Program-made: the position numbers and the translations under genes
In this document: positions 17,494-50,515 of the stretch, piece after piece
Position numbering within the stretch: the first letter of the stretch is position 1
How the letters are laid out: every line of letters begins with the position of its first letter
NCBI GenBank assembly: GCA_003487265.1
Contig: DNEP01000006.1
Span: 3,276-67,275, forward strand
Source of the DNA: Minisyncoccota bacterium
GTDB lineage: Bacteria; Patescibacteriota; Microgenomatia; UBA1400; UBA12028
Reading direction: 5' to 3'
Length of the DNA stretch: 64,000 nucleotides
The notes under the pieces: generated by a model
What the model was told of the DNA's origin: nothing
What the model saw: only the letters and a program-made list of their open reading frames with translations
Database searches by the model: none

Positions 17494-17550
17494 GTGGATT
17501 GTGCATATGTTTCTCTTTTATGGGGAAACTGTGAACAATGTCTGGTGCGC

Positions 17551-17599: not shown

Positions 17600-17729
17600 A
17601 TATTTTTTCTGTTTCGCACACGAAAAATGTACGAACTATTCGAGGGCGTTTTCAAACCATTTCACTTTTCCACACTACTACAAATACCTACTACTTCTTT
17701 CTTTATCTATTATTAGATACAATGCCACC

Positions 17730-18830: not shown

Positions 18831-20720
18831 TTATATGGTGGCAGACGCCCGTTGTTCGCTCGCTCTTTTTTGTAATATTTCTTCAGGATCCGTTGTGATA
18901 AGTTGGTGCTCTTGTTCGCTCGCGATTACGCGAATGGCAACGTGACTTTGTCCAGCAAAAAAGAGTCCCTCTCCTACATCCGAGCCCATAAGAAAGCGCC
19001 TTTCCCCCTCACTGAGATAGAATACTTGTGTGAGATGGGGGATTGCCGCGCTTGACTGTTTCATGAGGAATTGGATTGATGAGTTAGTGACGATCGCTTT
19101 TCCGTATTCATTGTTCAAAAAATCCTCAACATCTTGAGTAATTGTGGTGATCCCGAGATAATATTTTCGCGCACGTTTCGCCATTGCGTGAAGGAAGGAT
19201 GCACTATCTTGATAGCGCATAAAGTACCACGCCTCATCAACGATAAGAATGCGCTTTTTTAGAGAACTACGAATACGCGTCCAGATAAAATCAAGAATAA
19301 TAAACATTGCGATAGGTCGAAGGGAATCTTCCATTTCTTTTACAGAAAACACAGTCAGTTGATTTTTAATATCAATGTTTGATGCTTGATCAAATATTCC
19401 AGCAAACGAACCCGACGTGAATTTTTCCAGTCGTACGGCGAGCGATTGCGCTTCTGGCGAACTGATCGCTTTTAATGTCTGGAAAAGATCAACCATCTGC
19501 GGTGGTGTGCGCGATTGTGTGTTTGAATCTGGGGTAATTCCCTTTTTCTGGTATGTCTCAACTAGCGCGCGGTCTAATATCGCATCTTCGGTTGGGGAAA
19601 GTTGTCCAAGCATCACGCGTAACAGCGAATGAATGGAGATGATTTTCATTCCCAACTCATTTTCACCTTCTTGCTTTGAAGAACTTAAGTCAAAAGGATT
19701 GATTTTTTTATCTGAATCGAATGAGAATTGAACGTATTCACCACCCATTGCTCCGCACAGTTTTTCGTATTCATTTTCTGGATCAAGAACGATTACTTCG
19801 GCGTCAAACATGAGCTGTCGCAAAATTTCCAGTTTAACGGCGTACGATTTTCCAGCACCAGATTTCGCAAACACAACCATGTTCGCGTTTTCCATTTGGA
19901 ACCGATCAAACACAACAAGCGAATCGTTATGTTCGTTAATTCCATATAAAATCCCTCGATCGCTGGTGAGTTCGGCGGATGCGAAGGGGAATGTTGTGGC
20001 TAGGGAAGTTGTGTCCATATTTCTCGTGATACGTAATTTATCTACTCCCATGGGCGTGGTTGTTTTAAAGCCGTCCTCGATTTGTAAGGATGCTATTTTA
20101 CTCACAATTAACAGAGAGCCGAGGAGCGAGCGAACCTTATTCGTGATTTTATTTAATGCCTCCAACGAACTGTCGCTAATGGTGATGTACAATCCAAACT
20201 GGAAAAAACGCTCCGCACCTTTTGCGAGCTGTTCTTGAATAAGTCTCGCGTCTTCGAGTTTAATTTCTGTGTTGATGTTGCTTAATTTCCCTTGTCGAAC
20301 ATCCGAAGAGATCTCCGCTTCCATTTCTGTGATTTTTCTTCGAAGATCATCCAAGATTTCTTTTACTTCAATCGGGAAAATGTGCATTGAGATATCGAGT
20401 GAGTGGGGAAAATTAATAAGTGGCGCGAGCCAGTTTGCGGGGACGGTTCTGGGGTATCCTGCAACAAACAGGGTGCGAATGTAGGTTGAGTTGATTTTTT
20501 GATAGGTAAAATCAACCTCGATTGCTTCTGGGGCAATAATATCTTGAATACTTACAAGCCCCGCCGAAAATGTGCGAATTTGATCATCGAGCGACGCTTG
20601 CACGCTTTTTCCTGCAGGCGTTGTGATGTTTGTTTGCGCTGAAGATTTCCCCTGAGATTCGTTTTGGCGAGTGTTTACATGAGGTGTTTTTTTTGTAAAA
20701 AAGGGGAGAGAGATTGCCAT
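18831..20720 (-). CDS. VirB4/TraC/TrbE-family type IV secretion ATPase (Gram-positive PrgJ/TcpF-like)
   Basis: 629 aa. The Walker A 'VVFAKSGAGKSYAVK' and Walker B region 'RILIVDEAWYFM' are present. 'LGITTITQDVEDFL' matches the conserved VirB4 C-terminal motif block. This is the AAA_10/DUF87 architecture. Confidence 0.75.
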   Translation of the reverse strand: MAISLPFFTKKTPHVNTRQNESQGKSSAQTNITTPAGKSVQASLDDQIRTFSAGLVSIQDIIAPEAIEVDFTYQKINSTYIRTLFVAGYPRTVPANWLAPLINFPHSLDISMHIFPIEVKEILDDLRRKITEMEAEISSDVRQGKLSNINTEIKLEDARLIQEQLAKGAERFFQFGLYITISDSSLEALNKITNKVRSLLGSLLIVSKIASLQIEDGFKTTTPMGVDKLRITRNMDTTSLATTFPFASAELTSDRGILYGINEHNDSLVVFDRFQMENANMVVFAKSGAGKSYAVKLEILRQLMFDAEVIVLDPENEYEKLCGAMGGEYVQFSFDSDKKINPFDLSSSKQEGENELGMKIISIHSLLRVMLGQLSPTEDAILDRALVETYQKKGITPDSNTQSRTPPQMVDLFQTLKAISSPEAQSLAVRLEKFTSGSFAGIFDQASNIDIKNQLTVFSVKEMEDSLRPIAMFIILDFIWTRIRSSLKKRILIVDEAWYFMRYQDSASFLHAMAKRARKYYLGITTITQDVEDFLNNEYGKAIVTNSSIQFLMKQSSAAIPHLTQVFYLSEGERRFLMGSDVGEGLFFAGQSHVAIRVIASEQEHQLITTDPEEILQKRASEQRASATI

Positions 20721-20760
20721 AATGTCATCTTAGCAGGTTCGTGTGATATCTCGCAATGAA

Positions 20761-21456
20761 TTAGCGCGATTGAACCACTGGACTTGTGTACGCCTTTGAA
20801 CTCTCCACAATTTGACCATCAGAAGATCCTGGATTGTAGATGGTGTAGAAAATATGAATAAGTTCTTGAGTGTTGAGTTGTTTAACAATAATTCCAATGC
20901 GCGCAAGTTGTGAAATAATGTGATCGCGTTTTGGTTCAAGATCGGTTTTTGCTTTTTCAATAAGTTGCGGAATGTTAATTTGTGATTCTTGCGTTGATTT
21001 TTGCTTTTTAAATGGAAAAGGTGATGTTGGAAGGATTGAAGAAAGGGTGCTCGATTGATATGAAATGACAAGATAGAATTTTTTATCCAAAATGTTTCGC
21101 TCTTTCACAAGTGTGGAAACAAACTCTCGATACTGCGCGATTTGCGCGCGTTTTTGTGGGGCGTGTGTTCCACGCTCGGTTTCTTGAAGATGTCCCAAAT
21201 AACCCGAGATGTCTTTTTTTTGTGATCGAATGACAATTTGTATTGGAAAAGAAAGAGAATTGAGAATTCCCGCGTATGTGTAAATCATCGCTTCTTGTTC
21301 TTCTTCAGAGAGAAGATCAAAGTTAACCGATGATGCCGACATCACCATACTTGCCGTGCCATCACGAAGTAAAACGAGATTGTTCGTAATATCTAAAACA
21401 TCAAGAAATTCTTGCGTTGTTGATGAAAGGTGGTTGGAGGATGAGTGGGCGCTCAT
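20761..21456 (-). CDS. Hypothetical soluble protein immediately upstream of the VirB4-like gene
   Basis: 231 aa with no TM segment and no recognisable motif. It is co-oriented and tightly spaced with its neighbours. Confidence 0.35.
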   Translation of the reverse strand: MSAHSSSNHLSSTTQEFLDVLDITNNLVLLRDGTASMVMSASSVNFDLLSEEEQEAMIYTYAGILNSLSFPIQIVIRSQKKDISGYLGHLQETERGTHAPQKRAQIAQYREFVSTLVKERNILDKKFYLVISYQSSTLSSILPTSPFPFKKQKSTQESQINIPQLIEKAKTDLEPKRDHIISQLARIGIIVKQLNTQELIHIFYTIYNPGSSDGQIVESSKAYTSPVVQSR

Positions 21457-21465
21457 AGTGGTAGT

Positions 21466-22515
21466 TTAGGAGGTTTTCGCGAGAAATTCTAGCGGAGGAA
21501 TAATGGTGTTATTTGTAGTGAGTGTGTAGTTGTTAAATTCGAGGCCGTTTTTTTCTGTGCGAATACTAAAAGCTCCATTTTGTAGGGGGGATGTAATAAA
21601 GAATTGTCCTAATTTGTTCGTTTTGACTGCGCGCACCGCGATGCCCGTTTGATCAACAATTTCCACAATTGCCCCATCAACAATTTTACGATTTTGGTCG
21701 AGTACCATTCCAACAACAACGTTTGGTTGTTTTGGAGTTGATGGGAAGGGGAGACTACTATTTGTTTTCACCGCGATTTCCTGTTGGGTGGTAGTTTTAA
21801 TCACATTTTGTGCAAATGTGTGCAGCGTTTGTGTTGTTTCACCACGTTCTTCTTGTTGTTTTGATTTGTTTTGTGCCGCCTCAAATACGGTGACTTTTCC
21901 CGAAGGTTTAAGGAGGACTGATGAGGGTTGATGTGATTGTTTTTCAGCCGTAGATTGTTGGGTGGTAATAGGTTGGGTTGCTGGAGGAATAACGCGTTGT
22001 ATTTGTGCATGAGGCTTGGATTGTTGTAATGTGATAGGCGTTTTGTTGTTATGAAACAGTTGTGTGATGTTTTTTGAGTTCACAAAAAGATCATTTGGCT
22101 CAGACTGTGTTGAAATGGACTCAAAATACGCGCGAACTCGTTCGGAGCGTCCGATTTTTTGGTCGAGAAGGGGTTGCGATCGATCTCCTAATTTTTGTTG
22201 AATATACGCGAACGCATCTGGAATGCGGATTGTTTTTTTCCAGTAAAATTTTGTTGGTTTGTATATCGCGTGTAGGAACGCAACAACCCATTGATCTAGG
22301 GGGCGTTCTTCGAGCGGAACAAACGCAAACGCCGCTCCTGTGCCAATAATGATAAACACGAGAAAGAGTTTGAGTATGTTTGGAAGCGCGATCGAGTACA
22401 CGAGGAGCGCAACACCAACCGATCCAAGTAACTCGAAGAATTGCTTGAGCGTCATGTTTCCAATGAGGTGAAACTCGTACGCAGTGATATTCTGCGGGAC
22501 AGGATGCTCGATCAT
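21466..22515 (-). CDS. PrgI/VirB3-like membrane protein fused to a C-terminal beta-sandwich (carboxypeptidase-regulatory-like) domain
   Basis: The N-terminus 'EFHLIGNMTLKQFFELLGSVGVALLVY...FVFIIIGTGAAFAFVPLEERPLDQWVVAFL' matches the PrgI-family pattern: a two-TM hairpin ending in 'P-x-x-x-RPLDEW'. The C-terminal 'VVGMVLDQNRKIVDGAIVEIVD...FSIRTEKNGLEF' looks like a CarboxypepD_reg/Cna-B-type fold. Confidence 0.5.
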   Translation of the reverse strand: MIEHPVPQNITAYEFHLIGNMTLKQFFELLGSVGVALLVYSIALPNILKLFLVFIIIGTGAAFAFVPLEERPLDQWVVAFLHAIYKPTKFYWKKTIRIPDAFAYIQQKLGDRSQPLLDQKIGRSERVRAYFESISTQSEPNDLFVNSKNITQLFHNNKTPITLQQSKPHAQIQRVIPPATQPITTQQSTAEKQSHQPSSVLLKPSGKVTVFEAAQNKSKQQEERGETTQTLHTFAQNVIKTTTQQEIAVKTNSSLPFPSTPKQPNVVVGMVLDQNRKIVDGAIVEIVDQTGIAVRAVKTNKLGQFFITSPLQNGAFSIRTEKNGLEFNNYTLTTNNTIIPPLEFLAKTS

Positions 22516-22580
22516 ATACTTTCATTGTAGCAGAAAGGTAATATGCTCATGCGAATAATATACTTTCATATGGTGGGGAA

Positions 22581-23594
22581 TTATTCTGTTTGGATTGCGG
22601 AGGTCATCACCTCAATGGTTGCGGAATTTCCTTCGGCGTCCATTGCTGTTCCTGAAAAAATAGCGAAAGGCATAATGGTGTTTGTTGATGGAATCGTTTG
22701 ATATTCAATGCGCATTGTAAAAAGTTTTGAGGATCGCAATTCTTTTGGGGTGAGTAGTTTTCCGGAAATCTGGTATGAAAGAAGGGAGTATTCCCCATTC
22801 TTCATTGAAGAAATCATCTCTGGAATTGAACGCACATTTGCATGACCGCCATCAACTGGTTGATATGCGACGTTGTGAATGAATATTTTTCGAACATATC
22901 CTTGCGAATCAACAAGAACGGTTGCTGGGTTGTTTGTTGTTCCTGTATGAGAAAACGAATATCCTGAAAAGGAAAGAGAAAAAGGAATAGAAAAATAGGT
23001 TGCCTGCTCTTCGATTGTTTGGGTGAGTTCACTTTCCCCCTTCAAAAATTGAATATTGGAAAGTTGTGGCGCGAGCTCTAATGTTGGAGAAAAGAGCGCG
23101 AGCGCCTCTTTTGCCAGAAGAATCGCTTCTTCTGTGCGCACGGTTTGCATTTCGGTTTGTGGTGGAATATTTCCCGTATACCGTATGGTATTTGTTTCAC
23201 TGTCATAAAAAAGGGAATACCCAAATTCTTTTTGTGTCCACAATGATGTTGATGAGCTTTTTTCCATATTCCACGCTATTGCGAGTTCTTGTAGTTTTGT
23301 GAGTGAAATGGGGGGGAGACTGTTTTGGTTTTGATAAATAGGGAGCGTTTTTGGAAGGGTTGGTGTTGGCCCAATGTATTCAAATGTTTGAATATTTTGT
23401 TCCTGTGTGAGTGTTGTTTGAATGCTGGGCTTTTCGGGAACAACGATTGGGGGTTCACTGGGGAGTGGTTGCCTGTTTTGTAACAGGGTGAGAATGAGTT
23501 GTAAAACAAAAACGAGGATTGTTGCGAGAATAATGAATGTAATAAACCATCGTTTCACCGGAATTTGTTTTTTTATTTGGATGTTTGTATTCAT
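22581..23594 (-). CDS. Bitopic membrane protein (candidate VirB8/PrgL-like component)
   Basis: Single N-terminal TM 'WFITFIILATILVFVLQLILTLL' followed by a ~300-aa extracytoplasmic region. I chose the start at the MNTNIQ codon, which leaves a 4-nt overlap with the upstream gene. Confidence 0.35.
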   Translation of the reverse strand: MNTNIQIKKQIPVKRWFITFIILATILVFVLQLILTLLQNRQPLPSEPPIVVPEKPSIQTTLTQEQNIQTFEYIGPTPTLPKTLPIYQNQNSLPPISLTKLQELAIAWNMEKSSSTSLWTQKEFGYSLFYDSETNTIRYTGNIPPQTEMQTVRTEEAILLAKEALALFSPTLELAPQLSNIQFLKGESELTQTIEEQATYFSIPFSLSFSGYSFSHTGTTNNPATVLVDSQGYVRKIFIHNVAYQPVDGGHANVRSIPEMISSMKNGEYSLLSYQISGKLLTPKELRSSKLFTMRIEYQTIPSTNTIMPFAIFSGTAMDAEGNSATIEVMTSAIQTE

Positions 23595-26440
23595 TCTTCC
23601 TCCTGTTGTGCGCCTTCGGTGTTTTGCGATGCGTCGGGGGAACAAGAAGATGTGACATAATCATTTATCGCAACGTCCGGATCGGGAACGGCCTCAAGAA
23701 TATTGATCCCTAAGGCTTCATAATGAAGGTGATTCCCGGTGGAATTTCCAGTTGAATCGGTTTTTCCAATAAGATCTCCAACTTGTATAGACATGGAACT
23801 GTTTTCTGGCATTCCAGCGAAGTTTAAAAGGTGGGCAAAAATAAACACAAGACCGTCGTCGGAAAGGAGAACGACATGCTTTCCATATCCTGGGTCAAGT
23901 CCATTACCCTCTGCATAAAACAGCGCTTTACCAGAAAATGGGGCGTACACAGGTTCATCTGCTCCAAGCACAATGTCGAGCGCAGATCCAGGCCCAGAAA
24001 CATATTCTCCAGATATGTTTGGAATTGAGGATGTGTACACGGCGTGGGGATCTCCGTTAGTGTAGAATTCCCCCAACTGCGTAACTGTTCCACTTACAGG
24101 CCAGCATCCCACACTTGCAACCCCTTGACCGTGAAGTGTTGAGGTGGGGTCAAGCATCATAATATCCGACTGATTTGCGGTGTTTGCGGTAAAAATACGA
24201 ACCGCGATTAACGCCGGAATGGTGATTGCCATTCCAGATGATGCTGAAAAGATAGGTGATTTGCTTGCAATCGAAGCGCCGACCGAACCCAACCCACTTG
24301 CTCCACCCATCGCCCCCTGTCCTCCAACCGCTCCTGCAACTTTTGAGCCACCCGCAACTCCCGCACTCGTCGCTCCCCCTCCTCCGCCCCCTCCACCCAA
24401 AAATGACATGAGTTTCATTGCCCCCATAGCCATTGCGAGCAAACCACTTGCTATAAGTGCAAGCAAACTCAGCAAGATTTTTACAAGCTTTCCCAATCGG
24501 GAAACAGTGTTGAGAAGAAAATCTTCTGTGGCCTCTCCAACAATGGGAATTTTTCTTAACAACTCAGCATATTTAAACGTCTGGTCTAGCGCGGGAATTG
24601 CCCCCGCTCCCCCAGGGATAAAAGTGAGTGCGGTGGTAAGTGCTTTTTTTCCAAGTTCATAATCCGCTTCGTTAAATTCTCTATTTTGCGCTGTGCTTTC
24701 TCCAGAAATTGCAGGAAGCGCGCCAAACGAATCTGGTTCAGAATAAAAGAAATCAAAATCTTTACCAAAAAACTCACCAGCCGATTCAAGAGAAGTTGAA
24801 CCATGATAATACGCGAGAAAACGCTGCCTTTGTTCTTCGGTGGCCGTTGCCCACGCGTGTTGGGTGCCCAAAATTTTCCCCATTTTATACTTGAGTGCAC
24901 GTTGTGCAGAGGAGAATTCTCGACGTTCCCTCTCATTTTCTTCTGCTTGTAGTTTTGCTTGATTTTCAAGTGCATCTCTTCGAATGTACATTCCGCGAGA
25001 CACAATGCGATATCCCTGAAGAAAAACATCTTCCTCAAGTCCTTTGAGTGAGTTTTGATCGAGTGGGAGTGGAGAATGTACTGCGTTATTGTGTGTGTCA
25101 CGCGCAACACTGTTTCGCACGAGTCGAATATATGCGCTAAATGACTCTGCCCAATCTGTATCATAAATGGTGTGCAAGAAGGGGAGAATGCGCGACCGTT
25201 CTTCGTCGGTTAATAAATCTTCAAAAATTCTCTCAAATTGTTTTATGTTAATCGTGTCGATGGTGTGTCCAGAGATTGCCAAGGTTTGGAGTCGAACCAT
25301 AATTCTACGAATGTCGGACTCGGGAATGTTTGCTTTTTGCAAAAGTTGTTCAAGTTGTTCCTCCATAAAAGCTGTTGACGCTTGAGTGGTCCACCCAGCT
25401 TTTTCGAGTTTTTTCTGATCGATGTTTTGAAGAACTTTGCCCGCAGTTTCATCTTCAATAATTGCTTTTACAAGATCCTCAATCTTGGGAGGTTCAACGT
25501 TATTTTTTGCAAGCGAGGTGAGCTGTGTTTTGAGCGACAGTTGAAAATGTGCATCAAGTGAGAGTCGCTGCAAACATTGGATGTACAGTTTTTGCCGTCC
25601 GTCAAACGAGGTGAGCGTGCGAATCAAATCTTCACCGGTGAGTTGTGATAACTCAAATAAAACTATATTTGAGGTTGCGGGAAGGAGGTCGCTGATAAAC
25701 TTTTCGCGTTCTTGATCGTCGGTTATGCCGTATGAAATCGCTAGTCGTGCAAGAAGTGACTGTCGAACGAGGGTAACCTGATTCCGAAGCTCTCTGTCGG
25801 ACTTTAAGATGTCTGTTAACGAAAGATTTTGTTTTTCTTCTTCTTTTTCTCGCTTTTCTTCTTCTTTTTTGTCTTTCTCTTGCATTGCGGGGATCGCAAT
25901 CCCAGCGGATCTCGGTTGATCGCCTGCCGCCACAGGTTGTTCCCCAACCGCCGCCTTTTCTTCTTCGGTTTGTGGCGATCGCAATTCTTCTTCTGATAAA
26001 TCATGCGCTTCCCGCGCAATTTCAATAAGCGTTTCAGCCTCGCGCAACTGTGTGAGAAGATCTGAAAGTTTTTGATCGGGAGAGAGGCGACGTTCTATAC
26101 TGTATTCTTCAAAAATTTCATGCCCGAACAAATCATGATCGACTTTTTTTGGAATAATATAACGAATGGTGAGAATGAGCACCCAAAGTTGATTAAATGA
26201 CAACCTTCCCAGCGTTTGATCGTCGGGGTGATCAATCATCTCGCGAAGCATTGCTTTGTATCCACCGGAGGTTTGAATGCGGGATAAAACGCCCAACGAA
26301 CGATCCGCGAGATCATATGATCGCTTCATGTAGTCGCGCAACGCATACGCGACCTTACTTATGTTTTCATCTTGAAGGTGTTCGCGGGTAAAAAATGATC
26401 GAATTGGCGCGCTATCCAGCATACGCGTATTGTACCGCAT
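23591..26440 (-). CDS. Large membrane protein with a C-terminal M23 (LytM) peptidase domain
   Basis: 949 aa. The C-terminus 'GYGKHVVLLSDDGLVFIFAHLLNF...IGKTDSTGNSTGNHLHYE' matches the M23 zinc-site H-x-x-x-D ... H-x-H arrangement. A poly-Gly/Ala segment ('GGGGGGGGATSAGVAGG...') is flanked by two TM helices. The N-terminal ~600 aa are helical with a KE-rich coiled coil. Confidence 0.65.
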   Translation of the reverse strand: MRYNTRMLDSAPIRSFFTREHLQDENISKVAYALRDYMKRSYDLADRSLGVLSRIQTSGGYKAMLREMIDHPDDQTLGRLSFNQLWVLILTIRYIIPKKVDHDLFGHEIFEEYSIERRLSPDQKLSDLLTQLREAETLIEIAREAHDLSEEELRSPQTEEEKAAVGEQPVAAGDQPRSAGIAIPAMQEKDKKEEEKREKEEEKQNLSLTDILKSDRELRNQVTLVRQSLLARLAISYGITDDQEREKFISDLLPATSNIVLFELSQLTGEDLIRTLTSFDGRQKLYIQCLQRLSLDAHFQLSLKTQLTSLAKNNVEPPKIEDLVKAIIEDETAGKVLQNIDQKKLEKAGWTTQASTAFMEEQLEQLLQKANIPESDIRRIMVRLQTLAISGHTIDTINIKQFERIFEDLLTDEERSRILPFLHTIYDTDWAESFSAYIRLVRNSVARDTHNNAVHSPLPLDQNSLKGLEEDVFLQGYRIVSRGMYIRRDALENQAKLQAEENERERREFSSAQRALKYKMGKILGTQHAWATATEEQRQRFLAYYHGSTSLESAGEFFGKDFDFFYSEPDSFGALPAISGESTAQNREFNEADYELGKKALTTALTFIPGGAGAIPALDQTFKYAELLRKIPIVGEATEDFLLNTVSRLGKLVKILLSLLALIASGLLAMAMGAMKLMSFLGGGGGGGGATSAGVAGGSKVAGAVGGQGAMGGASGLGSVGASIASKSPIFSASSGMAITIPALIAVRIFTANTANQSDIMMLDPTSTLHGQGVASVGCWPVSGTVTQLGEFYTNGDPHAVYTSSIPNISGEYVSGPGSALDIVLGADEPVYAPFSGKALFYAEGNGLDPGYGKHVVLLSDDGLVFIFAHLLNFAGMPENSSMSIQVGDLIGKTDSTGNSTGNHLHYEALGINILEAVPDPDVAINDYVTSSCSPDASQNTEGAQQEEE

Positions 26441-28337: not shown

Positions 28338-28675
28338 GTGATCTTTCTGATGTGATTCTTCGTGCGAGCGAGGAAATCTATCAAACGATCACAGGAGCAG
28401 TGCTGTGCGTAGCGCTTGAATCCGAAGCCCCACACGATGTCTCGTTCCTGGCTTAGGTGTTGCTTTCGAAAAGCGACACCCACACAGTTGCGGTACAGCC
28501 CGCGATTTACACGCGGTTCCGAGTAGATCCACTATGATCGAGTCGAGGAAAGATTGCAAGAGGGTGATGTGCGTTTTGTGCGCGCGTGCTTTGCGCGCCT
28601 TGAATCTTTTTCGAACCGCCCCTTGATTTTCCAGATGATTCCCTGATATGAATAGATACAGAAAGTGAGGCGAAT

Positions 28676-30313: not shown

Positions 30314-30336
30314 AACAGATGTGGTAAAATAAAGAT

Positions 30337-33846: not shown

Positions 33847-33898
33847 TATCATCCGTTAACTACGTGTTTGCAAAGATTTTATTATCGAATTGCTTGTG

Positions 33899-35548: not shown

Positions 35549-35627
35549 AATGGTTGTATTGTATCGTGTATCGCGATCTCAAACAAGAACGCGGAAAACA
35601 GTTCGCTGGAAATGATAGAATATCGAT

Positions 35628-38228
35628 ATGCGCACGCGAGGTATTTTGTTGATGATTGTCTCTTCGAGTTTTCTTGTTGTAATGGCGTTTTTTCGTCTTT
35701 CTTTTCCATATTCCGCGCATGCGGTGGTCGAAAAATCCATTCCGTTTATTTTTCCTGGGCCCGATGATGCGTTTTTGAACTGTTCTGGTGATAAAGAAGA
35801 ATGTTTTCGAGAGTCCGCCTCACAGTACATTATGACGTGCTCTCCAGAAATCAAGTTGCAGGCGCAGGTTGATCCTGAAAAAATCAATGAACCTATTATG
35901 ATTGACGGAACAGCAACAACACTTGCGGAATATTGTGGAACTGATCCAGAAAATGCAAACTGCGTGTTCAATCCCGTAAGTGGATCGGTGACAAGTCTTG
36001 TACCGAAGTCCGCGAATACCTCACTGTATCGCACAACACAATCTTCGGGGAAGGTACTGAAGGGGAGAACGGAAAGTCTGGAAGGTTTTTTGGCGGGAGA
36101 TGCGGATCCCGAAACGATATTTGATGCAGGTCCATCAAGAAAAATCCAAACCGTGCAACAAAACTGTTCACAGAGTATTCGCTATCTTCTTGCGGTTGAA
36201 TCACTTTGCCGAGAAGAAACGCAGCAAGGCGAGTTTTCCCCAGGGTTCCAGACGCAAAGCGTTATTGATCAATTTTTGAATCAATTTAGTCAGCAGTTCC
36301 AAGGGTGTTCACTTAACGAAAAGATTGGAGATACTTCGTACGCTGAGTTGTTGAGCGCTGTTCGAGAGCGAGCCGGCGGTGAAGGAAAAGAGGAGTTGTA
36401 TTGTCGTTTACCCGAATACCTCGATCCCGACTCTGCGGCAAATAATGACTTGGGAAAGAAGCAGGAATACATTGATAGAGCAAGCAAAATAGACAGTCTG
36501 CGCCCAATCTTGGATCGCGCGTTTTCAAAAGGATACTTGGCAATCGCCAATCAAAAAGGAACGGTGTATTCGGTGATTCCCGTGCTAATTCCTTCGAGTT
36601 TGGGATTGTATGAACAAAACTTTCCCGTGCTTTCTGGTTCAAACAATGTCGGGTTTAATGGACCGCTTCGACAATTAATGAGTATGTATATTACTCAAAG
36701 TCAACTGATGGCGATGCAAGACCAACAAAATCTTGCACAAGAAAAGATTGCGCAAACCATGCGTGCAATCGACAATGAACAACTTGATATAAGTGCGTCT
36801 CCGTACATTGATCCAAATTTTTGTTCAAATCCAAGTACCGACGCGCAAAAAATCGCGTGCCTTTTTGCAGACCGCATAAATGCTGGAATTGCCAACAATG
36901 AGTTTGAAGGACCGGATGGAAATACAACCTGTACATTTTCACCTACAAAAGCCGATGCGGAAACAGCAAAAAAACTGTATTCATCTACGAAGCCGAACTT
37001 TTTAACCACACTGTTTTCCTTTTTTTCACCACCCGATGAATCGTTTTCTGGCACACCTGTTGTATCGCAACCTCAGGTACAAAATGATTCCTCAATTCGT
37101 TCGTTTTTGCTTGTTCCATGCGCCGATTTTTGTTTGATTCGATATACAGAAAAAGCTTTGTTTGGTGCGATGGCGGACACAAACTATGCTTCAAACATCG
37201 AACAACACATCAAAGAAGGAAACTATAAAAGCAATGGCTTTTTGCGATTGTCTGGCATTGCTCCAAAGATCACCTCGTACGTATCCGAAAAAACTTTTCC
37301 TTCTGTTTCTGGATCTCCTGTAACAATTTCTGCGGAGATTGTGCCAACAGGAGACGCAAATCCGTTGATGTTTGGAGGATGGCTTGCTCAGTTGTTTTAT
37401 CTTTACACCGCGGGAGTGACCGCGGATGTAGATTCGCCAGCAAGAGCAGAAACATATCCCACACTTGAAACATACTGGACATCATTCAAAAGCGAATCAT
37501 CGCAGTCAACGGGGACATTTGAGTATTGTTCAGATTACAAAGATCCGAATGATGAAAATGCGTGGATCACTGTTGACGTTCCCACGATCCCAGAAATTAA
37601 ACAGCTCGCCTGTTCCACTGCAGAAAAATACAACGTTCCCGCCTCGATGCTTTGGGGAATATTTCAAATTGAGTCGGGATATGACAACACAAATGTGAGT
37701 TATATCAATATTGCATCGCGCCTCGATCCTGATGTAACAACCTACGCGTGTTCTTTGCAAACAGATGGAAGTTTTAAGCCATTAAATCTCATGGTCAACG
37801 ATTGTCGTGTGAATCTTCCCGAGTTTTTTCCAGATGCGAATCCTCCGCTTTCGGCGCTCCCCGCAAATGGCGAGTCAGAGTTTGTTCGGGGAAGAAATGT
37901 GTGCGAAATCGAAGTAGCGTTCGATGTGATTGCGCAAAGTCTTGCGACCTACAGTAAGGCGAAAACTTTCCAATATCCCGCAGGATCAGCGAAAGCGGGA
38001 ACGCCAAATTGGTACTGGTTGGCTGGTCAGTTTGGTGTTGGCGGAATTATTCAAGAATTTAAACAACAAGAAGAACCATACAAATGCGCCATCCCCGAAG
38101 GTGGTCCGTATGAAAAATGGGCGCATGTAAGCGGGTGTTATGAAAATCAACAAACGCTTTCTGGGGCAAATGTCGATTACTGTACTTGTTTAGTTGAAAA
38201 CTTCCCATTGGATTGTTCAAGTTTATAA
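35628..38228 (+). CDS. Secreted Cys-rich 866-aa protein with a lysozyme-like (SLT-type) motif
   Basis: N-terminal signal peptide 'ILLMIVSSSFLVVMAFFRLSFPYSAHA' and more than 25 Cys residues. The segment 'ASMLWGIFQIESGYDNTNVS' resembles the catalytic E-S block of lytic transglycosylases; this assignment is weak. Confidence 0.4.
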   Translation: MRTRGILLMIVSSSFLVVMAFFRLSFPYSAHAVVEKSIPFIFPGPDDAFLNCSGDKEECFRESASQYIMTCSPEIKLQAQVDPEKINEPIMIDGTATTLAEYCGTDPENANCVFNPVSGSVTSLVPKSANTSLYRTTQSSGKVLKGRTESLEGFLAGDADPETIFDAGPSRKIQTVQQNCSQSIRYLLAVESLCREETQQGEFSPGFQTQSVIDQFLNQFSQQFQGCSLNEKIGDTSYAELLSAVRERAGGEGKEELYCRLPEYLDPDSAANNDLGKKQEYIDRASKIDSLRPILDRAFSKGYLAIANQKGTVYSVIPVLIPSSLGLYEQNFPVLSGSNNVGFNGPLRQLMSMYITQSQLMAMQDQQNLAQEKIAQTMRAIDNEQLDISASPYIDPNFCSNPSTDAQKIACLFADRINAGIANNEFEGPDGNTTCTFSPTKADAETAKKLYSSTKPNFLTTLFSFFSPPDESFSGTPVVSQPQVQNDSSIRSFLLVPCADFCLIRYTEKALFGAMADTNYASNIEQHIKEGNYKSNGFLRLSGIAPKITSYVSEKTFPSVSGSPVTISAEIVPTGDANPLMFGGWLAQLFYLYTAGVTADVDSPARAETYPTLETYWTSFKSESSQSTGTFEYCSDYKDPNDENAWITVDVPTIPEIKQLACSTAEKYNVPASMLWGIFQIESGYDNTNVSYINIASRLDPDVTTYACSLQTDGSFKPLNLMVNDCRVNLPEFFPDANPPLSALPANGESEFVRGRNVCEIEVAFDVIAQSLATYSKAKTFQYPAGSAKAGTPNWYWLAGQFGVGGIIQEFKQQEEPYKCAIPEGGPYEKWAHVSGCYENQQTLSGANVDYCTCLVENFPLDCSSL

Positions 38229-38255
38229 CGACAATCGTTCGGAAGTGCGATGTTT

Positions 38256-38696
38256 TTACGGTTGATAAATAGTGAACTGCATGATCGAGGTGACGCCGGT
38301 AAAGTTCGACAAAAACAGCATAATCAACCACGAAGAAATGGCAACCAAAATTCCCAGTAGTGCGAAAGAAAGCGTTTTCTTTCCCGCCTCGGTCATTTTT
38401 GGGTTTCCCCCGCTAAGTAAAAAGGTGAATGCGCCAACAATTAACATAACAAATGATGATAATCCGACTGCCGTGACCGCAATGTTTAATACATTTCGCA
38501 CCACACATTCTAGTCCAGAAAGCGTGGGAATTTCGTATGTTGCTGGGCCGTTTCCTAAATCCATGGTGACTTGTTGAACGCAGCCTTTGGAGGCATTCCA
38601 TTCATTGAGCTTTGTCTGAGCGGAAATTGTTGCGGGTGTTACAAAAGAAACGGAACACAGAACGACGAACGCAATACACGAGGTGAGCAATTTCAT
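38256..38696 (-). CDS. Small two-TM membrane protein, paralog 1 of 7 (putative T4SS-type pilin family)
   Basis: Signal peptide, then a hydrophobic helix, the loop 'LSGGNPKMTEAGKK', and a second helix. This is the same architecture and loop motif as the six downstream paralogs. Confidence 0.5.
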   Translation of the reverse strand: MKLLTSCIAFVVLCSVSFVTPATISAQTKLNEWNASKGCVQQVTMDLGNGPATYEIPTLSGLECVVRNVLNIAVTAVGLSSFVMLIVGAFTFLLSGGNPKMTEAGKKTLSFALLGILVAISSWLIMLFLSNFTGVTSIMQFTIYQP

Positions 38697-38785
38697 ATGT
38701 GTAGTTTAACATACGAACGACCGCTTCTGCATTCGCAGAGATTCGCAAGATGTTTACTAAACCGATTCGAGTACCAATTTGAGTA

Positions 38786-38815
38786 CAAAAAGGCCCCGTT
38801 TTTCAAGCGGGGCCA
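38786..38815 (-). terminator. Rho-independent terminator after the paralog array
   Basis: On the minus strand the GC hairpin GGCCCCGC-(loop)-GCGGGGCC is followed by a T-run. It lies directly after the stop of the 38847-39188 gene. Confidence 0.6.
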
Positions 38816-38846
38816 AGGTTTTCAAAATGTATGAAGTGAGTGTGTA

Positions 38847-39188
38847 TTAGAACGGTCGTTTGATCTGATCGCCGAGGTGAAACACATCAATTCCAAAGAA
38901 GTACGCGACAACTTGCATGAGCGCATATGAAGATGCAACGATTGCGAGTCCGACCAAGGAAGCGGTGATTTTGTTTCGAGCGCTTTCGGTCTTGCTCTTG
39001 TCGCCACCGGACATAATCCACTCAATACCGCCAATAACAAGATATGCGAACACCAAAACAGCCGAGATTAACAAGGCCAAATTGAGAACACTTGTAAAAA
39101 GCAACCCAATATCCGTGATTTTTACGTTTCCATCATTGACTGGGTCAATGGTAATAGTTGGCTTTGCTTGTGCGAGAAGTGCGAGCAT
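38847..39188 (-). CDS. Small two-TM membrane protein, paralog 2
   Basis: '...VIGGIEWIMSGGDKSKTESARNKITASLVGLAIV...FFGIDVFHL' fits the shared family motif. Confidence 0.5.
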   Translation of the reverse strand: MLALLAQAKPTITIDPVNDGNVKITDIGLLFTSVLNLALLISAVLVFAYLVIGGIEWIMSGGDKSKTESARNKITASLVGLAIVASSYALMQVVAYFFGIDVFHLGDQIKRPF

Positions 39189-39270
39189 GTATTCCTCCTT
39201 AGACTATGTGTGCATTTTACCTTGTTTACGTGTTCGGTGCAAGCGGGCGGTGTTTCCCGCGGTTTCGCAT

Positions 39271-39669
39271 TTACAGTACGTAATATTTGTCTTTATCCCA
39301 ATCAACAGGTTTTAGTTGGTCTTGTTTAAGCGGTGTTTTCTCGTTTCCATCCTTTATTTTTTCTAAATTGACGATATTGAGTCCAAAATACCATTGAATA
39401 ATTGCAAAAATGGCGTACGCAGATGCGGTAACCGTGAGCCCAATAATGGCATTGGTGATCATTTGTTTTGCGCTGTCGAGCTTTCCTTTGTCTCCTCCTG
39501 CAAGAACCCACTGTAATCCACCGAAGACTAAATAGAAAAATGTTGCAATACCTGCAATTAACAACAGCGTTCCTGTTGCGGATCCAACGTACTTCCCCAA
39601 GTCAAAAATATTCACAACGGACCCTTCAACTTGCAGGCCTCCTAAAATATCAAGTCGTTGTGTGATCAT
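39271..39669 (-). CDS. Small two-TM membrane protein, paralog 3
   Basis: '...VFGGLQWVLAGGDKGKLDSAKQMITNAIIGLTV...YFGLNIVNL'. Confidence 0.5.
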   Translation of the reverse strand: MITQRLDILGGLQVEGSVVNIFDLGKYVGSATGTLLLIAGIATFFYLVFGGLQWVLAGGDKGKLDSAKQMITNAIIGLTVTASAYAIFAIIQWYFGLNIVNLEKIKDGNEKTPLKQDQLKPVDWDKDKYYVL

Positions 39670-39672
39670 ATC

Positions 39673-40029
39673 TTATTTCCCCAACAATCTTGGAAATACA
39701 GGTTGAAGTAGGCTTAATCCAAAGACGCTTTCCACAAACAACGCGATCGCTGCGACACCCGCCAACACCCCAAAACCGACGATGGACTGCATGATCATTG
39801 TCTTTGCGGAATCAATTTTCCCCTTGTCGCCTGCGGCACTCGTCCATTCCCACCCCGCGCGAAGCAAGTTAACAAGAACCATGATTCCACCAAGAACGAC
39901 CAGCGTTTGCCACAACACCGCAATATATGTGGTGAGTACAAGCGCAGAACTCGCAGTATCCTTCACCGTTTGAAGTTTTGTGGGAAGAACAGGATTTGTG
40001 ATCGCTGCTAAAAGCGTTGTGTTCATCAG
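39673..40029 (-). CDS. Small two-TM membrane protein, paralog 4
   Basis: '...LLRAGWEWTSAAGDKGKIDSAKTMIMQSIVGFGV...VFGLSLLQPV'. I moved the start to the second Met to give a 4-nt overlap with paralog 5. Confidence 0.5.
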   Translation of the reverse strand: MMNTTLLAAITNPVLPTKLQTVKDTASSALVLTTYIAVLWQTLVVLGGIMVLVNLLRAGWEWTSAAGDKGKIDSAKTMIMQSIVGFGVLAGVAAIALFVESVFGLSLLQPVFPRLLGK

Positions 40030-40424
40030 CATCCTCCCCAAATATTGTTCAAGATGAGGATGGGATTCAAGATATCTATTCCAAGAACCCCACCGACAAT
40101 CCCAATGATCGCCTGCGAAACAATCACGACCACAAGTCCAATCGCCCCGTTAATCATTGATTGTTTTGCTGTGTCGATCTTCCCTTTTTCGCCATTCGCG
40201 GTAATCCACGTGAGTCCCGCGAACACCATGTACACCAAGAACATAAGTCCGCCAAGTGCAGTGAAAAATCCAAGAAAAACAGAGATGAGTGTTTCAAGTG
40301 GTCCAGTTGCAACTGCAGAACAATCGCCACTGAAATTTGGGCTCAATTTTTCACTTGCGCTTTTCACAAATCCAGAGAGAGGATTTGTGCTTGCTTCTAG
40401 TGCTAGTAACTTCTGTAACATCAT
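40026..40424 (-). CDS. Small two-TM membrane protein, paralog 5
   Basis: '...VFAGLTWITANGEKGKIDTAKQSMINGAIGLVV...VLGIDILNPI'. Confidence 0.5.
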   Translation of the reverse strand: MMLQKLLALEASTNPLSGFVKSASEKLSPNFSGDCSAVATGPLETLISVFLGFFTALGGLMFLVYMVFAGLTWITANGEKGKIDTAKQSMINGAIGLVVVIVSQAIIGIVGGVLGIDILNPILILNNIWGGC

Positions 40425-40431
40425 TGTTTCC

Positions 40432-40770
40432 TTATGGCGTGACTAGTTTTGGATTGAGGAAGTACGTGGCGTTTCCAAACAACACCCATCCAATAATACC
40501 CATGATAATCGGTGCAGAGACTAACAACAACAACCCCAATATGCTCATGTTGAATTTTTGCATCACTTTTTCGTGTGTTTTTGTATCACCGTTCGAGGTG
40601 ATGTACTGAAATCCTGCGAATACAATGTTAAACAATGCGATTAAGCCACCTACGACTGAAACAAAGACCATCATATTATTGATGAATAGAATGATCTGTC
40701 CACTTGTCCCATAACCGTCTAACGGTGAAGGTTGTGTGATTGTTCCAAAAAATCCATATAGCATAGTCAT
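40432..40770 (-). CDS. Small two-TM membrane protein, paralog 6
   Basis: '...VFAGFQYITSNGDTKTHEKVMQKFNMSILGLLL...LFGNATYFLNP'. Confidence 0.5.
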   Translation of the reverse strand: MTMLYGFFGTITQPSPLDGYGTSGQIILFINNMMVFVSVVGGLIALFNIVFAGFQYITSNGDTKTHEKVMQKFNMSILGLLLLVSAPIIMGIIGWVLFGNATYFLNPKLVTP

Positions 40771-40779
40771 ATTGTACCA

Positions 40780-41127
40780 TTAGATCGCTGGGTTAAGGAT
40801 GTCAAATCCTGCACCGAAGAATACGAGTGACAAGATCTGAACAATCCAATACGCCCCGATTACAAGGAGAAATCCAATAAGCGCGGTTTGAATCGTTTTT
40901 GACCCTTTTTCGAGTCCTTTTGGATCACCTCCAGATGCGACAATGGTGATTCCACCAAACACAAGCATAACAAAGATGATTAACCCACCAAACAGAAAAA
41001 TGTTTGGTAAAAACACATTGATAATGCTCGCGGGATTGGGAAATTTTGAGTCAATAGTTGCCCCAGTATTCGAGTTTAAGATGAGTTCTTGTTTGAAATC
41101 AACGACGGCAAGCAACGATCTGGACAT
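40780..41127 (-). CDS. Small two-TM membrane protein, paralog 7
   Basis: '...VFGGITIVASGGDPKGLEKGSKTIQTALIGFLL...FFGAGFDILNP'. Confidence 0.5.
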   Translation of the reverse strand: MSRSLLAVVDFKQELILNSNTGATIDSKFPNPASIINVFLPNIFLFGGLIIFVMLVFGGITIVASGGDPKGLEKGSKTIQTALIGFLLVIGAYWIVQILSLVFFGAGFDILNPAI

Positions 41128-41146
41128 ACGAATATCTTAGCATATT

Positions 41147-41536
41147 TCAGAAAATCTGAGGGGGTTGCGTGCTTGTTTGTGTTTCTGCCGAGCCCGATGC
41201 CTGTTGCGCCGTTGAAGGCGAGGGTTTTGGGGTTGGGCTCCCCTGCGTTGCAACGTCGAGTGCGATCGGAAAAGATGACAACTCGTCTTGTGTGTATTGA
41301 CGGCGTTGATCAACATCGCGAATCGTGTTTTTGTCAATTGTGTCAGGTAATTTTTTTGTTTGTTCTTGAATTTCGGCAGGAAGGGTATATTTTTTTGCGT
41401 TTATCGACAGAGACACCGCGATCCACAGAATAACGGTGATGATACCAATAATGCCAATCATGGCGTATTCTCGACTATGCGTTACATATGCCAAGAAAGA
41501 TTGATCTTTTGGAGAGCGTATTTTTTGCGATGTCAT
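41147..41536 (-). CDS. Bitopic membrane protein with a P/S/T/Q-rich C-terminal tail
   Basis: 129 aa with one TM 'IGIIGIITVILWIAVSLSI'. It sits between the PilO-like gene and the paralog array and overlaps the PilO-like stop by 4 nt. Confidence 0.4.
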   Translation of the reverse strand: MTSQKIRSPKDQSFLAYVTHSREYAMIGIIGIITVILWIAVSLSINAKKYTLPAEIQEQTKKLPDTIDKNTIRDVDQRRQYTQDELSSFPIALDVATQGSPTPKPSPSTAQQASGSAETQTSTQPPQIF

Positions 41537-42282
41537 AGTTCAACCTCGTCTTGTTTTTTCTTGATGGTTTTTTCAACTGGTTGCCCAACAAAAAACGCGT
41601 GTACTTCTAACGACGCATTTTGAATGCTCACCTCATCTGCGTTTTTTAGCGTTGCGATGGATACAGATTGGACCTTCATCATGCGATCGGCCTTTTCCAC
41701 TGCTTGAATAAACGATCGGATTTGGGGATAGGTCGCGAGAAGGCGGACCTGAATAACCGCGGAATGAATTTCCCCATTTTTTTCTGGGGCGGGGAGATTT
41801 TCTGGAATGGATGCCATTTGAATAGATGAAAGGCGGATTCCTTGATCGGAACCAATGCGTTCAATCCGTTTTACCACCTCTTCGATCTCGGGAGTGTTTG
41901 GAATGGTGCGATGGAGGTTGTTGATTTGCGCTTTTAATGGCGGAAGTTCGGTTGAAAATGAAGAAAGTACCGAGATTTTTTCTGACAACAACTGTGTTGT
42001 TTTTTGTCGATCCTCGATTTGTTTGAGGAGATCGGACATGGTGAGAAGCGTGGGGCGAATTGCAAGCGTTGCGAGTAAAACAATAGACAGCACCGTCGCG
42101 GTAAGTTCAAGTGTTGTGCGCGAAGAAGACTGGTTTACGAGTCGTTGTGCGGTTTGCTCCGCAATACGCCGAAGGTCGTAAAACGTTGCCTTCGCTTGTT
42201 TTTTTGGGCCAAACGATTGCGGTTGAGGTGCAGAAAATTGAGAAGGAGAGGTTGAGCCGACTGTTTGTGGTGCGTCTGTCAT
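41533..42282 (-). CDS. PilO-like pilus-assembly protein
   Basis: 249 aa. Cytoplasmic N-terminus, single TM 'LELTATVLSIVLLATLAI', a coiled-coil, then a ~120-aa C-terminal domain. This is the PilO/PilN-type bitopic architecture. It overlaps the PilN-like stop. Confidence 0.45.
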   Translation of the reverse strand: MTDAPQTVGSTSPSQFSAPQPQSFGPKKQAKATFYDLRRIAEQTAQRLVNQSSSRTTLELTATVLSIVLLATLAIRPTLLTMSDLLKQIEDRQKTTQLLSEKISVLSSFSTELPPLKAQINNLHRTIPNTPEIEEVVKRIERIGSDQGIRLSSIQMASIPENLPAPEKNGEIHSAVIQVRLLATYPQIRSFIQAVEKADRMMKVQSVSIATLKNADEVSIQNASLEVHAFFVGQPVEKTIKKKQDEVEL

Positions 42283-42824
42283 GATTTTACCTCGAAAGAA
42301 AGAATGAACTGATATCCCATCTCTTTTTCATCATCGTTTCGAACTTGGGAAACCGAAAGTTTTTCAATTTGCGGTGATTTTTGAAGTGTGGTGACAAGAA
42401 GCGCAATATCATCTGCTGAGTTTGCAATTCCCGCAATTTGAAGTTGGGCGCCTTTTTGTTGAATAGTTTTCAGATATACGTTGCGAGGTATCTTTGAACT
42501 CACAACGTCAAGAGCGCGAACAATAGAACCTTGCTTTTCTGTTTGAGAAAGAAATGTTGTTTTTTGTTGGATTGCGCGAACATCCTGCTCCATTGTTCCG
42601 TAGGAGGAGACAATCGCCGATTTTTGGACGAGGGTTGCGTTAAGATCGGTGAGATCTCGGTCGAGCTTGAATCGAGAAGCGATACTCAAGATAACGATAA
42701 ACTCGGTGAAGATGATGAGATGTTTCCCAACCGCAGAAGACCAACTCAGCAAACGACCTACGGGCGTGTCAAGAAAAGGATCTTTTGGAAGTAAGTTGAT
42801 GGATTGGACAGGTTTTGTATTCAT
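42279..42824 (-). CDS. PilN-like pilus-assembly protein
   Basis: The N-terminal 'SINLLPKD' matches the hallmark PilN 'INLLP' motif. It is followed by a TM 'LIIFTEFIVILSIASRF' and a periplasmic domain. I chose the start at the MNTKPVQ codon. Confidence 0.5.
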   Translation of the reverse strand: MNTKPVQSINLLPKDPFLDTPVGRLLSWSSAVGKHLIIFTEFIVILSIASRFKLDRDLTDLNATLVQKSAIVSSYGTMEQDVRAIQQKTTFLSQTEKQGSIVRALDVVSSKIPRNVYLKTIQQKGAQLQIAGIANSADDIALLVTTLQKSPQIEKLSVSQVRNDDEKEMGYQFILSFEVKS

Positions 42825-42895
42825 CGCTCCTCGGCAGGAAGGGTACATGGCGACCATGTATTTATGTATGATACTATATCTCAAAAGATTCTGCT

Positions 42896-50423: not shown

Positions 50424-50515
50424 TTAAATATCTGTGACCACTTATATTGCGCGTCGCAGTCGATAGTATACAACATTGTAAGCCGTTTGTAGGATCTGCG
50501 CCGTATGCTGTGCGC

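Follow-up and report, generated by a model that had tools for sequence, protein, structure and literature searches.

A 64-kb stretch of contig DNEP01000006.1 from a Minisyncoccota bacterium of the Microgenomatia (assembly GCA_003487265.1), hereafter the window, carries at 18831-42884 a block of genes related to type IV secretion systems (T4SSs). The best overall explanation, considered likely, is a non-conjugative Patescibacteria T4SS located beside the replication origin (oriC), with a core operon headed by a predicted cobalamin (B12) riboswitch and a role in contact with a host cell. A riboswitch of this class at the head of a T4SS core operon is new relative to the literature found, in which, at incomplete coverage, no link of the cobalamin riboswitch to Patescibacteria or to T4SSs was identified. 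Of the machine as such, the locus shows little beyond what has been published; the conserved riboswitch provides an experimental handle and a hypothesis on what the system responds to.

T4SSs are present in ~80% of genomes of the Patescibacteria, a phylum to which a quarter of bacterial diversity is often ascribed, where their role has been called "completely unknown" and where they were essential in the one species tested (PMC11665869). An apparent T4SS beside dnaA/dnaN was essential for epibiotic growth of Southlakia epibionticum and includes VirB4, PrgI, a TrbL/VirB6-like protein, wall hydrolases, and six pilins, without a coupling protein or relaxase (Wang et al., 2023; PMC10633639). A survey of 3,035 genomes placed a monophyletic Patescibacteria VirB4 clade within MPF-FATA and found TrsD and PrgI to be abundant, VirB2 genes to stand in arrays of 2-11 with ~25% identity, and relaxases to be nearly absent; the systems were close to dnaA/dnaN, above all in Microgenomatia and Paceibacteria (Quinonero-Coronel et al., 2025; PMC12102498). 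For the authors of a 2025 review, they form an established new branch of the superfamily (PMC12857230). The evidence supports the block as a Microgenomatia member of this MPF-FATA-derived clade, i.e., of a system already published. A first-pass annotation of the window had likewise proposed a chromosomal T4SS, domesticated, akin to Gram-positive conjugation machines, and located beside the origin; the profile matches, the synteny, and the absence of mobility genes from the window agreed with this. Window proteins were mapped by tblastn on the virB4-centred loci of 80 species, and neighbours of the pilin array were counted in 28 long loci from metagenomes, each centred on the pilin with the best conservation (individual loci are given L numbers). 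All statements of absence within the genome refer to the 64-kb window.

Predicted cobalamin riboswitch in the leader of the core operon

The core operon comprises six tightly packed minus-strand genes running from 28337 to 18831 in the order 641-aa zinc-ribbon-like protein, M23 protein, bitopic membrane protein, PrgI, TrsD-like protein, and VirB4, with intergenic gaps from -55 nt (-4 nt after correction of the bitopic start) to +65 nt. An Rfam scan of the window identified a cobalamin riboswitch aptamer at 28422-28570 (minus strand) in the 338-bp spacer that forms the 5' leader of this operon, matching RF00174 over the full model length with 37.5 bits (E 6.5e-6) against a gathering score of 31.5; 85 nt separate its end from the ATG at 28337. 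A 171-aa open reading frame (ORF) at 28389-28904 overlaps the riboswitch and was rejected as spurious.

Homologous leader sequences were present at the same place in L001, L003, and L081/L082, and homologous elements occupied the same position in altogether 13 further loci representing 12 other organisms (L001:1773-1926, L003:1783-1855, L081:16684-16807, L067:170-286, L031:1284-1407, L071:1218-1346, and seven more loci). Rfam at its gathering threshold gave no match in six relatives, with scores falling slightly under the threshold, and near-threshold matches to the cobalamin clan (CL00101) were found at the same position in six relatives. The relatives L001, L003, and L081 gave 31.3 and 27.7 bits against RF00174 and 33 bits against RF01482, and three distant elements reached 49.0, 38.4, and 34.7 bits against RF01482, the adenosylcobalamin (AdoCbl) model with a gathering score of 50. 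With a covariance model built on the shared core, the virB4-centred loci yielded ten further matches, each 8-10 kb upstream of virB4 and in the orientation of the operon. Across 819 kb of array-centred sequence the model yielded only two, both where they were expected. Over ~2.3 Mb this model gave 16 matches in the window plus 13 loci, all of them on the operon strand and in the expected place.

The CUGUGCCGCAAC(U/G)GU core and the AAGUC(A/C)G B12 box were nearly invariant in 14 aligned sequences. Paired cells amounted to 96.7% compared to 75.5% in shuffles and the covariation score was 0.63 compared to 0.20, with none of 500 shuffles as high. Compensatory changes occurred in four of the five P4 pairs and the slid controls all collapsed. 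These results are subject to the caveat that the alignment was fitted to the model. The leader is thus predicted to hold a conserved RNA element of the cobalamin riboswitch class, a prediction well supported by the score above the gathering threshold and by the conserved core and its covariation. The genes downstream are neither B12 transport or synthesis genes nor genes for B12-independent isozymes, the targets that would be expected of the class. In each of the 13 loci checked, genes of one strand run without a break from the aptamer through virB4. As a separate observation, a CGACGAGCAUC motif was noted shortly downstream of several aptamers (L060:~860-880, L023:~1920-1935, L065:~2180-2195, and L067:~287-297) and may be part of a common expression platform.

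Core secretion genes

The block is made up of five transcription units of alternating orientation and not of a few co-oriented operons, as had been thought at first. Profile searches recovered the VirB4, PrgI, M23, and T4SS_pilin families, and the VirB6-like component was recognised by structure and not by Pfam. The VirB4 ATPase (18831-20720, minus strand) is encoded by the last gene of the core operon and was confirmed by three Pfam matches, i.e., P-loop_TraG (4.5e-25), AAA_10 (1.4e-14), and CagE_TrbE_VirB (7e-5). Its homologs number in the thousands, all in Patescibacteria and with 65-79% identity, the closest named genome being a metagenome-assembled genome of the Microgenomates group; on its best homologs and domains this VirB4 is assigned to the Patescibacteria clade. 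The preceding gene (20761-21456, minus strand; 231 aa), initially left as a protein of unknown type between PrgI and VirB4, proved TrsD-like, with a near-full-length match to the NCBIfam TrsD/TraD model NF041427 (1.2e-5, under the curated cut-off) and a match to the N-terminal region of the VirB4_plasma model (2.1e-10). The proposed PrgI/VirB3-like hairpin protein (21466-22515, minus strand) was supported by PF12666 (2.4e-8, residues 5-88) and by two transmembrane (TM) segments. This protein also has a 260-residue C-terminal extension, the end of which is a CarboxypepD_reg-like beta-sandwich (PF13620 8.7e-5, below the cut-off), and a separate essential prealbumin-like protein, SEML1_0004, is encoded in the T4SS cluster of S. 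epibionticum (PMC10633639).

TrsD-like and PrgI/VirB3 genes next to virB4 were identified in 73 and 69 of the 80 loci, respectively, the M23 protein in 42, DnaA in 64, DnaN in 63, YidC and RNase H in 56 each, and Jag in 55. The M23-bitopic-PrgI-TrsD-VirB4 order, which the first-pass annotation had called unusual, is therefore the norm in the class and stands beside dnaN/dnaA in most of the 80 species, so that the comparison with relatives showed both the core order and the dnaN/dnaA vicinity to be kept. The PrgI-TrsD-VirB4 order has a parallel in TrsC-TrsD-TrsE of pGO1-type systems. The complete 24-kb layout, including seven pilins in identical order, was also found in L081, a relative on a 995-kb contig.

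A bitopic membrane protein is encoded at 22581-23594 (minus strand) and consists of one N-terminal TM segment, a proline-rich linker, and an alpha/beta ectodomain. The proposed bitopic build held, with the start fixed at M18 by the homolog P0242, and of 56 loci inspected, 55 have a protein with one N-terminal TM segment immediately upstream of prgI. The family profile (40 sequences) had no match in PDB sequences or Pfam and no signal against TcpC, PrgL, PrgD, or Orf13 in hhalign. A structure model from two near-identical homologs only reached a predicted local distance difference test (pLDDT) score of 43.5 and, at this low confidence, displayed helices and then sheets after the TM segment and linker, an arrangement that is compatible with an NTF2 fold and proves nothing. 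The ECOD entry e4ec6 is presumably pIP501 TraM. An NTF2-like domain under this entry was assigned to SEML1_0012 (Wang et al., 2023, supplement; PMC10633639), which makes a VirB8-like protein in such clusters plausible, and a VirB8/TcpC-like role of the bitopic protein is possible.

The M23 protein (23591-26440, minus strand; 949 aa) has a soluble N-terminal part of ~640 aa, two hydrophobic segments with a glycine-rich spacer, and a C-terminal M23 domain (PF01551 1.8e-12), in agreement with the proposal of a cell-wall hydrolase fused to a membrane anchor. The domain matched solved M23 peptidases (best 4.4e-7) with the HxH motif, the central His, and the Asp kept. The first gene of the operon (26412-28337, minus strand; family alignment A9) starts at the ATG at 28337, overlaps the start of the M23 gene by 29 nt, and encodes a soluble 641-aa protein with a zinc-ribbon-like CxxC...GECxxCxxCE motif common to its family, which had no match in Pfam or PDB. 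A hydrophobic motif G-x-F-[IV]-A-x-L-[IV] is at or near the C-terminus of the family and terminal in several relatives, and its version in the window, DNFIASFAG, lies ~55 residues before the C-terminal end. An upstream start at GTG 28435 was excluded, the composition of that frame being non-protein-like.

The polytopic membrane protein encoded at 33899-35548 (minus strand) was identified by TM prediction and by structure. Neither this protein nor any of its 120 listed homologs matched Pfam, and the family profile gave no signal against PrgH or TcpH (hhalign). A structure model based on 54 sequences was confident in the membrane core, and the four best Foldseek matches in PDB were R388 TrwI/VirB6 chains (probability 0.98-1.0, E ~0.02). 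On this modelled fold, the protein is accepted as VirB6-like, as the first-pass annotation had suggested in naming it VirB6/TrbL-like, and it provides the VirB6-like component of a Patescibacteria-clade T4SS. The family comprises 4,923 clusters at 50% identity. VirB6 was reported as scarce in Microgenomatia (PMC12102498), a gap that the assignment of this family closes.

Pilin array and its neighbors

A second minus-strand operon runs from 42884 to 38847 and encodes PilN, PilO, a 129-aa bitopic protein, and the tandem VirB2-type pilins pil6 to pil1 (38847-41127), located at 38847-39188 (pil1), 39271-39669 (pil2), 39673-40041 (pil3), 40026-40424 (pil4), 40432-40770 (pil5), and 40780-41127 (pil6). 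The operon ends in a strong intrinsic terminator at 38787-38814 (minus strand; GGCCCCG...CGGGGCC hairpin and U tract, fold z-score -4.2), beyond which a further paralog with its own signal peptide, pil0 (38256-38696, minus strand), forms a separate unit. The T4SS_pilin family PF18895 matched six of these seven paralogs, i.e., five of pil1-pil6 plus pil0 (6.2e-6, at the gathering score), and pil3 was recognised by a weak match to the pilin-like model NF045849, its two-TM build, and BLAST matches to its paralogs. The block thus contains a divergent array of VirB2-type pilins, as anticipated in the description of six tandem pilin-like copies and a seventh past the terminator. Mean identity among the paralogs was 25%, in agreement with the published value, compared to 45-73% for one-to-one orthologs in the same order in L081 (49% for pil0), from which an old and fixed pilin set is deduced and not a recent amplification.

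PilN-like (42279-42824, minus strand; PF05137 1.3e-14) and PilO-like (41533-42282, minus strand; PF04350 6e-10) proteins had been named beforehand and were confirmed by these matches, the true start of PilN probably being M21 of the ORF from 42884. They share one operon with the array in the window, L081, L097, and L098, and precede it in two of the 28 array-centred loci (the closest relatives) plus L081; a metagenome scan with PilN alone gave no match. The adjoining 129-aa bitopic protein (41147-41536, minus strand; one TM segment) has a weak ortholog in L081, L097, and L098 only. The PilN translation retains INLLP, which we take to be the PilM-binding motif of type IV pilus PilN. PilN and PilO are probably type IV pilus genes inserted in a narrow clade, and their listing among the general parts of the secretion system did not hold, the pair being absent from 26 of the 28 array loci.

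In array loci without the pair, a gene for an extracytoplasmic function (ECF) sigma factor directly abuts the array. The corresponding gene in the window (42896-43507, plus strand; Sigma70_r2, Sigma70_r4_2, and Sigma70_ECF) is divergently upstream of the array, an arrangement found in 21 of the 28 loci and also in L081 and L085, and as a conserved neighbor this sigma factor is a candidate regulator. It is followed by an 83-aa single-pass membrane ORF (43537-43788, plus strand; recognised by its translation and hydrophobic segment), possibly an anti-sigma factor. Neither sigma factors nor PilN/PilO are mentioned in the 2025 survey (PMC12102498).

Variable and secreted proteins of the block

Two orphan plus-strand genes encoding soluble proteins of 545 aa (28676-30313) and 1169 aa (30337-33846; GC 0.37) occupy a variable slot opposite in strand to its neighbors. 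No match was obtained for either protein in Pfam, NCBIfam, PADLOC, or PHROGs, nor for the 545-aa protein by tblastn in the 80 loci, where its position was in range. Every relative examined encodes beside the VirB6-like gene one or two large soluble proteins of 350-1767 aa on the opposite strand (L081:11915-16568, L083:11726-15338, L084:11761-15219, and L085:11828-17131), without detectable similarity between species or to the window proteins, the counterparts of the 1169-aa protein in L081 and L083-L085 being non-homologous. Host-interaction proteins would be expected to behave in this manner, with their place kept and their sequence changing without restraint, and one guess is that the slot proteins are effectors. 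A reading of the slot as a defence island or prophage was dropped as unsupported, PADLOC and PHROGs being negative. The orphan soluble proteins of the block sum to 2355 aa, in line with the early estimate of more than 2300 aa of unknown proteins.

The polytopic gene and a gene for a secreted cysteine-rich 866-aa protein (35628-38228, plus strand; signal-peptide-like N-terminus) diverge from a 79-bp spacer. The 866-aa protein has 22% identity to a 1323-aa protein at the same position in L081. The lysozyme motif attributed to it found no support in Pfam (also at E<=5 for the C-terminal domain), NCBIfam, or PDB sequences even at lenient thresholds, and a lysozyme or lytic transglycosylase identity was rejected at the sequence level. 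Some relatives have a VirB2-type two-helix module at the C-terminus of larger proteins of 298, 357, and 1076 aa (L083:4324-5220, L083:5223-6296, and L084:5683-8913 on the plus strand), and the 1076-aa protein also shares regions with the big secreted proteins at the position of the 866-aa gene, which hints that secreted large proteins may physically associate with the pilin structure. Candidates for regulators and substrates are the ECF sigma neighbor and the large proteins of hypervariable sequence.

Origin context and mobility genes

A cluster of DnaA boxes at 17452-17674, in the dnaA-dnaN spacer and ~1.2 kb from the 3' end of virB4, probably marks oriC. It includes six TTATCCACA-like boxes, among them the only two perfect boxes of the window, and coincides with the minimum of the cumulative GC skew at 16-18 kb. 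The genes rnpA, yidD, yidC, jag, and rnhA are on one flank, followed by dnaA and dnaN (both by Pfam), so that the DnaA boxes, the housekeeping genes, and the GC skew agree with the location next to oriC first proposed. The listed dnaN ORF (17538-18824, plus strand) opens within the cluster of DnaA boxes and is matched by Pfam only from residue 65 onward; translation probably begins ~180 nt further downstream.

No relaxase, VirD4/type IV coupling protein (T4CP), integrase, or transposase was found among the ORFs tested across the window, and no flanking or attachment repeats were identified around the block, as noted in the first reading of the sequence. The block is chromosomal and near dnaA/dnaN without the marks of a conjugative T4SS. 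VirD4 and relaxase genes are often far from virB4 in Patescibacteria genomes (PMC12102498). The GC content of the block is like that of the flanks except in the two orphan plus-strand genes. SpoIID (L083 and L084) and SBP/VanW (L083) genes directly adjoin the pilin genes in relatives that are more distant (L083:1-4088 and L084:1875-3620), and the window SpoIID/SBP/VanW genes (907-4968 and 46512-48257) are 4-35 kb from the array, which indicates rearrangement about a shared neighborhood.

Comparison with described systems

The block shares with the S. epibionticum ML1 cluster (SEML1_0006-0019) and the systems of the 2025 survey a chromosomal location adjacent to dnaA/dnaN, VirB4, TrsD-like, PrgI, and TrbL/VirB6-like proteins, wall hydrolases, six or seven divergent PF18895 pilins, and the lack of a relaxase or coupling protein in the cluster. 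It differs in belonging to another class, the Microgenomatia, and in gene order, in having a single M23 fusion instead of a lysozyme plus a DD-peptidase, in being split by two orphan genes on the opposite strand, and in having PilN/PilO before the pilins. A further difference is the core operon headed by a cobalamin riboswitch and a zinc-ribbon-like gene, which is unmentioned in the literature found.

VirB4, the PrgI/TrsC hairpin, TrsD, a wall hydrolase, a bitopic scaffold-type protein, and the lack of an outer-membrane core are common to the MPF-FATA systems of Gram-positive plasmids, i.e., Trs/Tra of pGO1/pIP501, Prg of pCF10, and Tcp of pCW3. In contrast to these, the window has no relaxase, T4CP, oriT, or adhesin, its bitopic and polytopic families are without detectable profile similarity to TcpC, PrgL, PrgD, Orf13, PrgH, or TcpH, and it contains VirB2-type pilins, which Gram-positive systems lack (PMC12857230). 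VirB2-type pilins and the best PDB match of the polytopic protein (TrwI/VirB6) link the block to the R388/Agrobacterium VirB T4SS, from which it differs in the absence of VirB7, VirB9, VirB10, VirB5, and VirB11, in seven pilin paralogs instead of one, and in a single-membrane envelope. The riboswitch resembles known cobalamin riboswitches (RF00174/RF01482, such as the btuB leader) in its core, B12 box, P3/P4 stems, and position in a coding-strand 5' leader, and differs in preceding a secretion-machine operon and in the short, near-threshold aptamers, the ligand being presumed from family membership.

Proposed mechanism and alternative explanations

In the proposed mechanism, VirB4 hexamers would dock on PrgI/VirB3 and the TrsD-like protein and power assembly of the channel, the VirB6-like and bitopic proteins would form this membrane channel, and the M23 protein would open or remodel peptidoglycan. 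The seven pilins would be inserted in the membrane and extracted to build a filament on the surface or a conduit reaching the host cell of the epibiont. Plentiful cobalamin would cause the riboswitch to lower the expression of at least the first gene and, given the tight spacing and gene overlap, probably of the downstream core genes too. B12 riboswitches usually repress genes for B12 uptake or synthesis and B12-independent isozymes, and on this analogy the acquisition of host-derived material or the sensing of nutritional state would be favored over DNA transfer. From the S. epibionticum data, we infer that the system serves host-dependent growth and not conjugation. A tentative extension is that cobalamin directly switches the core operon off via the leader riboswitch, the T4SS being regulated like a B12 acquisition system. 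If true, the machine, or the zinc-ribbon-like product that it may handle, would serve the acquisition of cobalamin or other host-derived material from the host cell, and for the first time a metabolite would hint at what a Patescibacterial T4SS does.

The main rival to such operon-wide control, and likewise a speculative possibility, is that the riboswitch controls the first gene alone and translationally, the first gene having a B12-related or other role apart from secretion and the T4SS genes being expressed independently of it. The riboswitch was found in about one quarter of the loci with a visible leader and always with the first-gene family (both in ten loci, neither in 30), a restricted occurrence from which control of the first gene alone may follow, and lineages without this module keep the remaining operon. 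Four apparent exceptions have the first-gene family without the riboswitch, the gene in three of the four starting at the edge of the fetched DNA. The start codon in L081 and L003 lies ~10 nt after the B12 box, a spacing that suggests translational and not transcriptional control in these loci. Against first-gene-only control, the M23 gene invariably follows the first gene immediately and in the same orientation (gaps of -29 to +87 nt), the 29-nt overlap of the two genes in the window favors co-transcription and coupling, the first-gene family is without a B12-related domain, and terminator-like sites in the core-operon stretch were not clearly above chance (18 compared to 12.4 +/- 4.0); consensus promoter and terminator scans as a whole were not above chance. 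Beyond the restricted occurrence of the riboswitch, several points weigh against a riboswitch-headed host-contact system. A hairpin that would sequester the Shine-Dalgarno sequence and AUG in the window was no better than in shuffles (z -1.2), and the stretch from the aptamer to the ATG contains a sigma-70-like match; a transcript starting there, if the promoter is real, would bypass the aptamer. Cobalamin as the ligand is an assumption from family membership, the VirB8 equivalent is an unproven candidate, and the first His of the M23 domain is not evident, so that one zinc ligand may be missing. The data are compatible with export as well as import, and VirD4 or a relaxase could be encoded elsewhere in the genome.

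It appears unlikely that the riboswitch hit is a decayed remnant, or an RNA of another kind, that has lost cobalamin binding. The window score is near the threshold and all relatives are under it, several P1/P2 pairs are non-canonical, and the downstream genes are no classical B12 regulon; against these points stand the nearly invariant ligand-binding core and B12 box and the covarying stems, by which selection evidently maintains the fold, and the full-length matches of both RF00174 and RF01482. Similarly improbable is a machine that imports DNA like H. pylori ComB or archaeal Ced instead of exchanging proteins or small molecules. The window has no relaxase or coupling protein and a comF-like gene at 50447-51193, and nucleotide acquisition via the T4SS has been raised in a PNAS perspective (PMC11665869). 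Loss of comEC in S. epibionticum, however, abolishes competence and leaves viability intact, and the T4SS is essential (PMC12857230), which rules out a ComEC-dependent role and leaves ComEC-independent import unaffected; furthermore, no DNA-binding or nuclease domain was detectable in the block and DNA uptake is not a process for which control by a B12 riboswitch would be obvious. Homology of the components to Gram-positive conjugation proteins would also fit a decayed or cryptic integrative conjugative element, a very improbable explanation in view of the missing mobility genes and repeats, the identical chromosomal site beside dnaA/dnaN in at least 60 species with VirB4 identities of 65-79%, and the flank-like GC content outside the two orphan genes. 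Finally, the PilN/PilO-array operon could point to a type IV pilus-like fibre built independently of VirB4. This is highly unlikely, as the small proteins match the VirB2-type and not the type IV pilin family, the two genes are missing from nearly all array loci, PilB, PilC, PilM, and PilT are absent from the window, leaving PilN and PilO as the only type IV pilus proteins found, and the INLLP motif, if PilM-binding as presumed, points to a separate type IV pilus machine.

Other features of the window

A transfer-messenger RNA (tmRNA) was identified by Rfam at 51601-51999 (minus strand; 81.7 bits) and was not reported by ARAGORN; a 123-aa ORF at 51686-52057 overlaps it and is therefore probably not a gene. 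An 806-aa protein (61024-63444, minus strand) contains a Baseplate_J or phage baseplate-wedge-like region (Pfam 1.8e-5, PHROG 1.5e-9) and, with no other phage genes recognised nearby, its gene adjoins a sortase gene at 60184-61002 (minus strand).

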